From an uncultured Chloroflexia bacterium (GTDB lineage Bacteria; Chloroflexota; Anaerolineae; B4-G1; SLSP01), in NCBI GenBank assembly GCA_963751345.1, contig CAVVUS010000010.1:32001-96000 (forward strand): a stretch of DNA of 64,000 nt, read 5' to 3'. Shown piece after piece: positions 17,800 through 24,332 of the stretch (the first letter of the stretch is position 1; the number at the start of each line of letters is the position of its first letter). The notes below the pieces were generated by a model, which was given only the letters and a program-made list of their open reading frames with translations, was not told the origin of the DNA and ran no database searches. A program made the translations under genes and the position numbers.

Positions 17800-18453
17800 G
17801 TGACCAAGTACTTCATTGCTGTGGCGGGTAGCATCGGCGTCGGCAAGTCGACGCTCACATCGCTCTTGAGCCAGCGCCTCAAGTGGGAGCCTTTTCTGGA
17901 AGGGGTAGGGGACAACCCTTACCTCGCAGATTTCTACGAGGATATGGAGAAATGGAGCTTCCATTCCCAGGTGTTCTTTCTGGCGAGACGGCTGCTGCAC
18001 CATCGACAGCTTCTGGAACGTCCAAACTCCGTGATACAGGATCGGACTGTCTACGAGGATGCCGAGATCTTCGCCCGCAACCTCTATATGCAAGGGGCGA
18101 TGAGCGAGCGTGACTATGCGACCTATTCAGAGCTCTACCGCGCCGTGACCTCCATCCTACCGCCGCCGAATCTCGTCATCTATCTACGTGCCTCCGTGGC
18201 CACCTTGCAGTCGCGGATCCGGTTGCGTGGGCGAAACTACGAGCGCCAGATCAGCGATGATTATCTGCAGCAGTTGAACCGGCTCTACGAAGACTGGTTC
18301 GATCATTTCTCGCTCTGTCCGGTCTTGACGGTTCCTGCAGACCGGCTCGACTTTGTCGCTAATCCTGATCACCTTGACTTGGTGACCGATCGAATTCTGG
18401 AACGTCTTCGCGGTAAGGAAGTCGTCCAGCTCAGCGATACAGGCCAAGCATGA
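17800..18453 (+). CDS. Deoxynucleoside kinase
   Basis: IAVAG.IGVGKST, NPYL.DFY, QDRTVYED, RGR.YE. Confidence 0.9.
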   Translation: MTKYFIAVAGSIGVGKSTLTSLLSQRLKWEPFLEGVGDNPYLADFYEDMEKWSFHSQVFFLARRLLHHRQLLERPNSVIQDRTVYEDAEIFARNLYMQGAMSERDYATYSELYRAVTSILPPPNLVIYLRASVATLQSRIRLRGRNYERQISDDYLQQLNRLYEDWFDHFSLCPVLTVPADRLDFVANPDHLDLVTDRILERLRGKEVVQLSDTGQA

Positions 18454-19548
18454 ACTACGAACGGTTTTTCGAGGCATACCCCGACGCTGTCGTTGTGCTT
18501 GACCACGAAGGGCGGATTCTCCATGCGAACCACGCTGCTCAGGCACTCCTGGGAGTGCCTGTACCGGCTCGCGCTGAGGAGCCTGTCACCATAGATTTGG
18601 CCAAGCTTGGCATCGTTGAGGAAGACTTCGAGGAGCTCCGCCGGAAAACCTTGGATGGGAGTGCGCTCGCTTGGGAGTTCGAGTCACCGAGGGCCGAGGG
18701 GGAGGCGCAGCTCTGGCTGCAGGCGAGGTTCTCTCCTTTGGTCGATGACATCGTCGCGGCCGACTACCTACCTGTGGACAGGGCACGACATCACGGATCG
18801 GGTCGACCTGGAGCGGAGACGTCAGGATTTTGTCTATATGATCGTTCACGATCTACGGGTCCCTCTGGGGAATATCCAGAACAGCCTGGATCTCGTGCTC
18901 TCCGCATGGCGCGAGCGGGACCTAACCATCCCGGTCGAACAGATTCTGATCATCGGGCTGCGCAGCACCCGCAAAATGGAGCTGCTGGTGAGCGATATTC
19001 TGGACGTTGCCCGCCTCCAATCCAACCAGCGGACCCTGGCCGTGGCCGAGATTGATGTAGTTGGTATGGTAAGAGAGGCCGTTGAGGCGGTCACGTCGAC
19101 TGCCAATCGGCATGGCCACACGATAAGCGTTGACACGCCCCCCGATTTGCCGACCTTGGATGGGGATCCGGATCTATTGACACGCATCCTCGTGAACCTG
19201 CTCTCCAATGCGGTCAAGTATGTGCAGGATGGCGGCAGGATCGCCGTGGGTGTCCAGGCTGACGATGAGGTCTTCCGGTTTAGCGTCATCGACAACGGGC
19301 CAGGTATCCCGCCTGAGAGCCAGGATTACGTCTTTGAGCTCTTTTCCCGGGGACAGTCGAAGCGTGTGTCGGGCGCAGGCATTGGCCTGGCCTTCTGCAA
19401 GCTGGCTGTGAATGCGCATGGGGGGCGGATTTGGGTGGAGAGTGAGCTGGGGGCGGGCTGCTCATTCTATTTCACGATCCCCCGTGTCCTCCCGGGAGAT
19501 GCCGTCTATGCCGCAGACTATTACGGAAACCGGGGGCTCGAGGCATGA
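18450..19548 (+). CDS. PAS-domain sensor histidine kinase; frameshift ~18750-18770
   Basis: PDAVVVLD..GRI...N.AA then HDLRVPL, NLLSNAVKY, DNGPGI, GIGLAFC. Confidence 0.8.
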
Positions 19549-21769: not shown

Positions 21770-22248
21770 TTACCTCAGGTACGTCAATAAGTGCGACAGC
21801 GCCGCAGTCGCGGCGCTGTCGTTGTTCTCCTGTCGGTCACCCGTAAAGTGATGCCGCCATGCCCAGCACTCGCCTGGGACGGCCAGCCCGATGTAATAGA
21901 GCCCCAAGGGCTTGTGAATCGTGGCGCCTGTTGGGCCGGCGATTCCCGTGATGCTCATCGCGACTTCGGTGCCTGCAGCCTGGCAGGCCCCGCGGGCCAT
22001 CTCCAGGGCCACCTGTGCGCTGACGGCGCCCCAACGGCCGAGACTCTCCTCCCGAACGCCCAGGAGACCCACCTTGACCTCGTTGGCATAGGCGATGACG
22101 CCGCCCTGGAAATATGCCGAGCTACCCGGCTCTGACGTGATCAGGTGCCCAAGCAGCCCGCCGGTTGCAGACTCCGCCACAGCGAGTCGCCACCTACGTG
22201 CCAGCAGGCGTGGATGCGATTTGCTTGACGAGCATCCGGTCCTCTCAT
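21770..22248 (-). CDS. CinA C-terminal domain / NMN deamidase (PncC-like); start uncertain, probable indel ~22210
   Basis: LAVAES.TGG, PGSS.YF.GG.IAY.N..K, GAVS..VA..MA, SITGIAGP.G. Confidence 0.85.
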
Positions 22249-22251
22249 TCT

Positions 22252-23217
22252 CTAGGCAGATAGCTGATTGCGCACCATCGTGACAAGCGAGTTGGCTCGC
22301 AGCGAGGCCAGGTTGTAGCACGTACCGCCCAGATGATCGGCCAGAGCCTGGGCCAAACCCTTGTCATAGTCCACGCTCTCCATGTTGATGACGATCGACC
22401 TGATCTTCTCTTCCTGGATCTGTTCGGCGATGTGATAGGCCTCAACCTGGGGGGGCAGGTCGCCCATCGAGACGTTGCCTGCTCCATCTGTCAGAATGAC
22501 GAGGAGCGGAACGAGTTCGGGGTAGTGGCGAATCTCCTTGTCAATCGTATGGTGAGCCAACCACAGACCCGCCGCAAGTGGGGTCTTCCCGCCGACCGGC
22601 AGGTTCGTGAGCATCCGCTTCGCGAGATCGACGCTGTTGGTGGGCGGCAGCACGAGCGTGGCGCGGTCCTTCTGAAAGACGACCATCCCCACGCGGTCCC
22701 GACGTTGGTAAGCGTCCGTGAGCAGCGACAGGATCGCTCCCTTGGTTGCCTCCATTCGCTCGGAGACTGCCATCGACCACGACGCATCGACGATGAAGAT
22801 GATCAGATTCGCTGAGCGGCGCACCCGGACTTTCTTCTGATAGTCACCGGGGCGAAGCAAGAGTGCACGTTCCTCCGGGTCGTCGCACGCGCGGGCGATT
22901 TGGAAGGGGGCTGCGGCTCGCAAGGTGGCGTCAAACGCCAAATCCGACGCATCGCTCGGAGAGGATTCGAAGCCAGAATACCTGCCGCGCTTCCGTGTCG
23001 TACGGGTGCGGCTGCGCCGCCCGCCCGTGGAACGCACCATGCGATCCTGCGGGGTCTCGAACCTGCGTGGCTGAAAGATCTCACCAGGGTCGATAAACTT
23101 GCCGCCTTCCCACCACTTGCCATCGGTGGGCCATTCGGGGACGTCTTGCTCGAAGGGTTCCGGTTGAGCCGAGTCTGAGGCCTGCGCCTCTGCGTCACTC
23201 GGCTCAACCTCTAGGCT
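22252..23217 (-). CDS. Chelatase D-subunit linker + VWA domain, in the -1 frame of the upstream ChlI-like ORF
   Basis: Frame open from the A8 run to TAG 22252; DATLRAAAP, VDASWSM (MIDAS), GGKTPLA, LTDG..N. Confidence 0.85.
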   Translation of the reverse strand, partial: SLEVEPSDAEAQASDSAQPEPFEQDVPEWPTDGKWWEGGKFIDPGEIFQPRRFETPQDRMVRSTGGRRSRTRTTRKRGRYSGFESSPSDASDLAFDATLRAAAPFQIARACDDPEERALLLRPGDYQKKVRVRRSANLIIFIVDASWSMAVSERMEATKGAILSLLTDAYQRRDRVGMVVFQKDRATLVLPPTNSVDLAKRMLTNLPVGGKTPLAAGLWLAHHTIDKEIRHYPELVPLLVILTDGAGNVSMGDLPPQVEAYHIAEQIQEEKIRSIVINMESVDYDKGLAQALADHLGGTCYNLASLRANSLVTMVRNQLSA

Positions 23218-23238
23218 TTTTTTTCTCGGCCCTCCCCT
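23162..23238 (-). promoter_or_regulatory. Putative -1 programmed frameshift signal
   Basis: AGGGGAGG (23238-23231), A8 run (23224-23217), 7-nt spacer containing TAG, 13-bp stem 23209-23197/23174-23162. Confidence 0.75.
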
Positions 23239-24332
23239 GAGACATCTCCCTCATAGGTCGTTTCCCGGTTTTTGGGCTGGGATTCCTCTGCGCGTTCCCT
23301 GGAAGCAGCGACCATCTTGTCCAGTTGCTCGATCGAGGTCTGCACTTCGTCGAAGGGTCTCCGTTTGAGCCGGTGCGGTAGGGCCAGCTCTGCGGCCAGA
23401 AGGATATCCCTGTCTGTGACGTAACGGCGGTCTTCCCATGCTGCGTGTGCGACTGCGGTCTTGAGAATGACGAGATCGCCCCGATGACCGTCCACCCCGA
23501 GGCCCGCCATCATCTCGGCAATGGTGGCCATGTCGGCCCGCGTGTAGCGTACCTCAGGAAGAAGATGCCGGGCCACCTCTATGCGTTCAGCGAGTGAGGC
23601 TTCCTGTGGGGCCCATTCCTCGTAGAAGGCCTGTCCGTACTGCTCATAGGTCAGATTTCTCTCCATGATCGCCATACGAGCGCGTGCATCGTGAACCCCC
23701 GTCACGTCCACACACAGGGCGAAGCGATCGAGGAGTTGTGGCCGCAGGTCGCCCTCTTCCGGATTCATCGTTCCGACGAGGATGAAGCGCGCCGGGTGCT
23801 GGAAGGAGATTCCCTCCCGCTCGACATTGTTCACACCCATCGCGGCAGCGTCCAACAGAACGTCCACGATATGGTCATCCAAGAGGTTTACCTCGTCGAC
23901 GTAGAGAATGCCGCGATTCGCCGCTGCGAGGACACCCGGTTCGAAACGCCGCTCGCCTTTTTGGATAGCTCGTTCGATGTCCAGCGTGCCGACAACCCGA
24001 TCCTCGGTCGCGCCGATCGGCAGTTCGACAAACGGGACCTGTCTCGTCGCCGCCGGGAGGGTTTCGCCTTGCTGAACTCGGGTCCGGCAGTTCGTGCACC
24101 AGGTGGCTGGTTGATCGGGATCGCAGTTGAACGCGCCATCCGCCACGACCTTGATCTCGGGCAGCAGAGCTGCGAGACCACGGGCAGCCGTAGACTTCGC
24201 TGTGCCGCGCTCACCTCGGATCAGCACGCCGCCGATACGGAAGTTGATCGCATTGAGGATGAGCGCGCGCTTCATCCTCTCCTGATTGACAATTGCTGTG
24301 AAGGGAAAGACTAATCGTTCGTGGTCGGCCAC
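23211..24332 (-). CDS. Chelatase ATPase subunit I-like (ChlI/BchI AAA+)
   Basis: FPFTAIV.Q..MK.AL, GERGTAKST, ATEDRVVG.LD, LYVDEVNLL, NPEEG.LRPQLLDRF. Confidence 0.92.
   Translation of the reverse strand: MADHERLVFPFTAIVNQERMKRALILNAINFRIGGVLIRGERGTAKSTAARGLAALLPEIKVVADGAFNCDPDQPATWCTNCRTRVQQGETLPAATRQVPFVELPIGATEDRVVGTLDIERAIQKGERRFEPGVLAAANRGILYVDEVNLLDDHIVDVLLDAAAMGVNNVEREGISFQHPARFILVGTMNPEEGDLRPQLLDRFALCVDVTGVHDARARMAIMERNLTYEQYGQAFYEEWAPQEASLAERIEVARHLLPEVRYTRADMATIAEMMAGLGVDGHRGDLVILKTAVAHAAWEDRRYVTDRDILLAAELALPHRLKRRPFDEVQTSIEQLDKMVAASRERAEESQPKNRETTYEGDVSGEGREKKA

Follow-up and report, generated by a model that had tools for sequence, protein, structure and literature searches.

A probable frameshift-dependent chlD-type gene in an Anaerolineae bacterium: a conserved −1 recoding cassette predicted to yield ChlI-like and ChlD-like proteins from one mRNA

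Introduction

The minus strand of the window, i.e., the whole 64,000-nucleotide stretch of DNA analysed here, very probably carries an Anaerolineae chlD-type gene that depends on frameshifting (fs-chlD), with a −1 slip that would be made by the ribosome. In normal decoding, ribosomes would stop at the TAG codon at 23213–23211 and release a ChlI-like AAA+ ATPase of 373 aa. A fraction of the ribosomes would instead move back one base on the heptamer A_AAA_AAA (23223–23217), a slip that is probably aided by a hairpin located 7 nt downstream and by an SD-like GGAGG located 7 nt upstream. The shifted ribosomes would then go on to translate, in the −1 frame, an acidic linker followed by a VWA/MIDAS domain, generating a ChlD-like protein of 693 aa with the same N-terminus. 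One mRNA would in this way provide the two partners of an AAA+ motor of the I/D type at a set ratio. This reading builds on the anatomy and conservation of the cassette, the covariation of its stem and the catalytic motifs, which are intact in both parts of the gene. We infer that the slip is made by the ribosome rather than by RNA polymerase, and its efficiency and the assembly of both products are likewise presumed.

The frameshifting trick and its occurrence in organisms devoid of a large chelatase subunit are already published, as the available texts of PMC3711429 and PMC9227772 make clear, and frameshifted chlD-type genes had also been mentioned as reported in the sequence-only reading of this DNA, made before the present analysis. 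The gene adds a clean and well-supported example to a recoding family known since 2013; in annotation pipelines, it would otherwise come out as a pseudogene or as two genes. The additions made here are modest, namely the covariation shown by the hairpin, the association of this structure with short runs and its lack at long ones, the class-wide numbers for the gene versus CobN, and the existence of a CobN-side paralogue.

The Two Reading Frames and Their Predicted Products

The ORF of the short product (24332–23211, minus strand) comprises 373 codons for amino acids, begins with GTG and ends in GAA (23225–23223), AAA, AAA, GCC and TAG (23213–23211). The ChlI-like AAA+ identity of the zero-frame protein is given by matches to the Pfam models AAA_lid_2, Mg_chelatase and AAA_5, together with a match to TIGR02030 (BchI-ChlI) that extends over positions 1–332 of 337 and scores 421.7 bits. 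The nearest solved structures are those of ChlI (8osf, 6l8d) and BchI (1g8p), to which the short product shows full-length similarity at the level of 54–58%, with an E value of 6e-103 for the PDB entry 8osf. The Walker B motif, ILYVDE, is intact and conserved. The Walker A motif is a variant, GERGTAKS (residues 40–47), in which Ala replaces the last Gly of the canonical P-loop. In contrast with the canonical GxxGxGKS, GERGTAKS is found in 44 of the 46 clade members examined, the other two having GERGTGKS.

The second part of the gene lies in the −1 frame, whose open stretch runs on the minus strand from 23250, upstream of which it is closed, to 22252. This frame opens only 26 nt before the A8 run, includes the sequence ...KKSLEVEPSDAE... 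and reads KKSLEVEPSDAEAQ... from the run onward. From 23223, it encodes the acidic linker and the VWA/MIDAS domain of the 693-aa product, with matches to the Pfam models VWA_2 and VWA, an intact and conserved MIDAS motif (DASWS), and the VWA domain of BchD (2x31, E 3e-19) as the closest solved structure. Against TIGR02442, annotated as ‘putative cobaltochelatase’, the zero-frame protein matches positions 1–347 and the −1 frame positions 356–640 of 641; the two frames cover the model end to end and, therefore, together represent one full-length chlD-type gene. Scored separately, the halves reach 503.7 and 261.1 bits, while the curated cut-off of 779.45 bits applies to the whole protein. If the frames are joined after residue 370, the predicted long product comprises 370 + 323 = 693 aa, with the junction peptide ...GREKKSLEVEPS... 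/ ...GREKKSLEVEPSDAE.... The translations thus agree with the sequence-only reading, which had described a −1 frame open via an acidic linker into the VWA domain and had predicted these two product lengths.

Anatomy of the Recoding Signal

The A8 run is located at 23224–23217 of the minus strand and is followed by G; its last seven bases (23223–23217) form the slippery heptamer A_AAA_AAA, placed in the zero-frame X_XXY_YYZ register. Upstream, the SD-like sequence GGGGAGGG occupies 23237–23230, with the end of its GGAGG 7 nt before the heptamer. Downstream, only one codon (GCC) separates the heptamer from the zero-frame TAG at 23213–23211, and this stop is contained in the 7-nt spacer GCCTAGA that leads to the hairpin (23209–23162). 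The 13-bp stem is formed by GGTTGAGCCGAGT (23209–23197) pairing with ACTCGGCTCAACC (23174–23162), and closes a loop of 22 nt that harbours an inner 5-bp helix, GAGGC/GCCTC. RNAfold returns exactly this structure, with −41.5 kcal/mol for the 96-nt cassette and z = −3.5, and none of 200 dinucleotide shuffles folded as well. Each element that the sequence-only reading had listed (the SD-like site and the heptamer, the stop two codons later, the 7-nt spacer, and the 13-bp stem with its inner helix) is therefore present.

The cassette is more than a product of chance: the G+C content of the window is about 61%, and relatives again show the run in its register together with the stop and the stem. 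An Rfam search of positions 23050–23350 gave nothing near a gathering score, the best hits having E values of 2–6 and belonging to unrelated families. Regarding the upstream element, GGAG or GAGG occurs in the −19 to −5 window in 23 of 28 related loci, mostly with the 7-nt spacer, while the mean frequency is 16% in equal windows elsewhere in the same ORFs. The SD-like GGAGG may thus act as a stimulator of the slip, a role that we only infer, since the element also encodes conserved Gly-Glu-Gly codons.

Conservation of the Cassette and Covariation of the Hairpin

Among 40 related genomes, an orthologue at E < 1e-95 was found in all but two members of the genus, and within the genus both halves show 75–97% protein identity. 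In the family to which the window belongs, all 21 loci with both halves exhibit the same −1 relation, and two further loci are cut by contig ends. The clade set, to which named Anaerolineae/Anaerolineales MAG records were added, consists of 28 unique short-run loci, 27 of which contain both halves. Each of these 27 has the −1 shift, the run being A7 in 10 and A8 in 17, and in every one a zero-frame codon ends where the run ends, with A_AAA_AAA in register. The zero-frame stop comes 3 nt behind the run in 25 loci, and 15 nt behind it in the other 2. A7 and A8 differ by substitution of the base preceding the heptamer, with no indel. In relatives, moreover, as few as 8 nt (L009) or 4 nt (L045) lie between the opening of the −1 frame and the run, and 3 nt beyond the run the zero frame is closed; the shift is thus confined to the run itself. 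Twenty further loci from across the class comprise 16 that are −1 shifted at runs of A7 to A10, 2 that are fused and 2 in +1 relation; they include several one-contig genomes, where the same split is seen.

The hairpin is conserved as a structure. On the alignment of the 28 cassettes, RNAalifold recovered the outer 9 pairs of the stem. Considering the 13 stem pairs in the 28 sequences, 86% of the cells are paired, compared to 29–45% when the 3’ side is displaced by 1–3 columns. Changes on both sides are found in 7 of the 13 pairs, and the cells with double changes amount to 31, versus 8.6 ± 2.5 in shuffles, none of 500 of which reached 31; the covariation score of the stem is 0.276 versus 0.111. 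Since the 28 cassettes are kin, the shuffle control overstates the covariation, a problem from which the slide control is free. Examples of compensatory changes are GAGCC/GGCTC versus GAGGC/GCCTC, AGTTGAGG/CCTCAACT and CCTGAGG/CCTCAGG. The conservation of run, stop and stem in orthologues, which had been set as a check on the cassette, is hence borne out, and the layout of the 27 loci together with the covarying stem supports the earlier proposal of a −1 recoding cassette for I-type and D-type proteins.

Ribosomal Versus Transcriptional Slippage and Other Explanations

Ribosomal shifting is probably the main route to the long product here, in view of the fixed register of the run in the clade, the occurrence of A7 as often as A8, and the covarying, 7-nt-spaced hairpin accompanied by an SD-like site. 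The principal alternative is transcriptional slippage, in which RNA polymerase would add one A (A8 to A9) in part of the transcripts and the ribosome would read these straight through. This explanation is unlikely, as a polymerase would be indifferent to the register that places a zero-frame codon boundary at the end of the run in 27 of 27 loci, and as A7 is as common as A8 in the clade (11 of 28 loci). Furthermore, the 7-nt spacing of the covarying hairpin is typical of ribosomal stimulators, and hairpins that promote polymerase realignment are generally described upstream of the run, not downstream. Nevertheless, the site is a homopolymer of 8 in which one added A would lead to an identical long protein, relatives of the same class contain A9 or A10 without a conserved hairpin, and four sister-family genomes (L028–L031) carry a fused gene with an in-frame A9. 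It also speaks for the polymerase that, according to the available text of PMC3711429, slippage sites frequently consist of at least 8 identical bases and reporter yields in this gene family increase with run length.

The remaining explanations concern the DNA itself or the start of the second protein. An assembly artefact or decay, that is, a homopolymer miscall of a true A9 in a single ORF or a pseudogene, can be excluded for practical purposes, even though the source genome is a MAG, a histidine kinase gene in the same window (18450–19548) also seems split and fused A9 orthologues exist in sister families. The A8 run is spanned with 0 gaps by two independent short Logan contigs, derived from two soil-metagenome runs of one study that may include the source sample, and these contigs differ from the window only by substitutions, none of them in the run and those at 23182 and 23195 in unpaired loop positions. 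Moreover, 27 of 27 clade loci from separate assemblies agree in the −1 layout and in the stop directly behind the run, and one-contig genomes of the class show this split as well. The Walker A, Walker B and MIDAS motifs are kept, and both halves have a protein identity of 75–97% within the genus. A reading of the locus as two separate genes, with the VWA protein initiated at ATG 23040 and no trans-frame protein, is very improbable. This ATG is indeed the first canonical start of the −1 frame, which has no ATG, GTG or TTG before it. However, the 59 codons of the −1 frame upstream of 23040 are conserved as protein, including a WPTDGKWW motif that is maintained even at 61% overall identity, and the alignment of the −1-frame protein with genus loci starts at its residue 1. 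The same stretch belongs to the fused protein in sister families and is an internal part of the fused orthologues of 680–780 aa. In addition, no SD-like sequence is seen before 23040, and such a reading would leave both the hairpin with its covariation and the constant register of the run purposeless. The two objections raised in the sequence-only reading itself, a true A9 and an independent start at 23040, consequently fail. Similarly improbable is a DNA-level phase-variation switch, in which slipped-strand mispairing would interconvert a fused A9 and a split A8 form. Run lengths do range from A7 to A10 across the class, with an A10 in +1 relation in L082 and a fused A9 in four sister-family loci, but no indel variant appears within the family (27 loci) or in the two strain-variant contigs, and the frame relation is fixed across 66–97% protein identity. 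Ribosomal slippage on the A-run accordingly remains the preferred reading.

Run Length and Downstream Structure Across the Class

The presence of a downstream structure is related to the length of the run. Calculated on the 65 nt after the run, the fold z has a median of −2.85 at A7–8 sites (n = 32; 23 below −2) and of −0.28 at A9–10 sites (n = 26; 2 below −2), a difference with a Mann–Whitney P of 1e-7 whose independence, like that of the locus counts, is overstated by kinship. The exceptions are three A8 loci of one other family (L067, L069 and L074), which lack notable structure. The −1 orthologues with A9 or A10 (L045–L057, L060, L061 and L068–L084), in which the run is mostly followed by C, contain no conserved downstream structure. 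Within the class, the occurrence of short runs with a hairpin and long runs without it fits two routes to the same end, and suggests a switch between ribosomal and polymerase slippage in the same gene. The register of the A9 and A10 runs was also considered as a means to distinguish ribosome from polymerase, and was dropped, since any A9 register holds an in-frame A_AAA_AAA.

Several orthologues depart from the −1 layout. Loci L028–L031, from sister families of the same order, are fused genes of about 700 aa whose run, an A9 that keeps the frame, is located at the corresponding domain boundary. L028 and L031 have a degraded hairpin, and their +1 frame meets a TAG immediately behind the run. 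A slip at the A9 of these four loci would yield the short product, a polarity opposite to that of the window’s gene, and homopolymer miscalls in those MAGs are possible. Two other orthologues of the class are in +1 relation, L082 (G182:C18) with A10 and L077 (G109:C4) without an A-run, and these may represent other recoding solutions, errors or decay.

The Missing Large Subunit and the Possible Client

The sequence-only reading had pointed out the lack of a large subunit or tetrapyrrole gene in the window, a statement that extends to the genome. The own genome, which amounts to 5.4 Mb in 49 contigs at 93.4% completeness, gave no match to PF02514 (CobN/ChlH), and PF02514 is found in only 1 of the 41 genomes of the search of relatives, own genome included, and over the cut-off in 11 of 151 genomes of the class; as a control, this model was positive in 5 of 14 known reference genomes. 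Likewise, PF00490 (HemB), PF02570 (CbiC), PF01903 (CbiX) and PF02654 (CobS) gave 0 matches each in the own genome, although at 93% completeness these tetrapyrrole genes count as not found and their absence is unproven. A separate chlI was not found either, the only strong TIGR02030 match in the genome being the fs-chlD gene. The orphan state that the sequence-only reading had called unusual is therefore real, though already in print for Anaerolineae, as stated in the available text of PMC9227772.

At E ≤ 1e-60, on the other hand, 133 of the 151 class genomes have the fs-chlD gene, as do 104 of the 112 that are of high quality; by a hand count of frame lengths, about 84 of the best matches are shorter than 500 aa and about 40 have at least 600 aa. 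Five CobN-bearing genomes possess a second paralogue located about 3 kb or less from CobN (G028:C85, G043:C16, G091:C69, G134:C72 and G171:C54) and 49–57% identical to the AAA+ part of the window’s gene, while the orthologue of the window’s gene sits on another contig. This separation is not absolute, as only one copy is listed for four other CobN genomes. It is quite possible, as a tentative reading, that the orphan I/D pair is no relic of a chelatase but a near-universal AAA+/VWA motor of Anaerolineae, whose client is neither ChlH nor CobN and may be no tetrapyrrole at all. This reading draws on the contrast between 133 and 11 of 151 genomes, on the CobN-side paralogue, and on the strong conservation of GERGTAKS and DASWS. 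The question of which role a ChlI/ChlD-type motor plays in bacteria without a large subunit or tetrapyrrole synthesis is sharpened by the retention of the gene in most Anaerolineae and by its duplication alongside CobN.

The gene following the VWA frame on the same strand is CinA/PncC-like (21770–22321, minus), as had been proposed. Its longest ORF reaches 70 nt into the last part of the VWA frame, and its true start is probably located later, since the Pfam match begins at residue 36. Of the 61 loci searched, with duplicates counted, 34 have a CinA/PncC-like gene downstream, all of them in the family and its nearest kin. Nine distant loci have mutually unrelated neighbours, e.g., an S1 protein, SbcC, a Na/H exchanger, TilS, an MFS protein, an M42 peptidase and others. 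No conserved partner gene was found in the neighbourhoods of the 61 loci and the nine distant ones, and the CinA neighbour is family-level synteny only, with no clue to the client.

Relation to Known Recoding Systems and Chelatases

The −1 frameshift of E. coli dnaX shares with the window’s cassette an upstream SD-like sequence, an A-rich heptamer decoded by tRNA-Lys and a stem-loop a few nt downstream, and gives rise to two proteins with a common N-terminus. The SD spacer of dnaX is 10 nt, compared to 7 nt here. The features of a dnaX-type cassette, i.e., an SD-like element, an in-register X_XXY_YYZ heptamer and a hairpin 5–9 nt downstream, are all found in the window. However, the slip in dnaX leads to the shorter product (gamma), whereas here it would lead to the longer one, the heptamer ends in A here and in G in dnaX, and the protein families are unrelated. 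The match to dnaX that had been noted stands for the three-part layout, with the polarity of the products reversed, and the likeness would be one of mechanism only. dnaX is cited as an example of −1 frameshifting in the available text of PMC3711429.

Class I chelatases (ChlIDH/BchIDH and CobNST) depend on a large subunit and on a supply of tetrapyrroles. In the window’s genome, neither a PF02514 subunit nor a tetrapyrrole pathway supplying the substrate was found, in contrast to those holoenzymes.

As regards the fs-chlD family itself, the following rests on the available texts of three papers. Antonov et al. 2013 (PMC3711429) described a cluster of 23 −1 frameshifted ‘magnesium chelatase’ genes, including that of the Chloroflexi member Herpetosiphon, and E. 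coli reporters of the same gene family gave 10% frameshift product with A7, 40% with A9 and 63% with A11. In Atkins et al. 2016 (PMC5009743), A_AAA_AAR is noted as being under purifying selection and accompanied by a downstream structure, and it is remarked that something other than Mg may be bound. Kuznetsov, Milenkin and Antonov 2022 (PMC9227772) listed fs-chlD in Brevefilum fermentans and four Anaerolineaceae; the Anaerolineae named among Chloroflexi are Brevefilum, Anaerolinea, Ornatilinea, Longilinea and Levilinea. According to this paper, such genomes lack the pathways for CHL and B12 and also chlH/cobN, and the function is given as ‘Unknown’.

The window’s gene agrees with this family in its zero-frame ChlI-like AAA+ part, its startless −1 frame with linker and VWA domain, the conserved A_AAA_AAR/A heptamer in the overlap and the downstream RNA structure, with a short and a long product predicted as in the published cases. 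Nothing differs in kind, and the uncultured genus is not named in the available published texts. The four listed Anaerolineaceae have a separate chlI, unlike the window’s genome, which would correspond to the ‘stage 1’ of PMC9227772. Neither a covariation test of the hairpin nor the difference in downstream structure between short and long runs was found in the consulted passages of PMC3711429, PMC5009743 or PMC9227772.

A Seemingly Split Histidine Kinase in the Window

Elsewhere in the window, a sensor histidine kinase is seemingly split into two overlapping frames on the plus strand (18450–19548). The switch of frame must be located near 18750–18820, where no homopolymer was seen. This locus could be a real frameshift, a pseudogene or an assembly error, and its two frames encode PAS domains (18450–19055) and HisKA plus HATPase_c (18607–19548), respectively.
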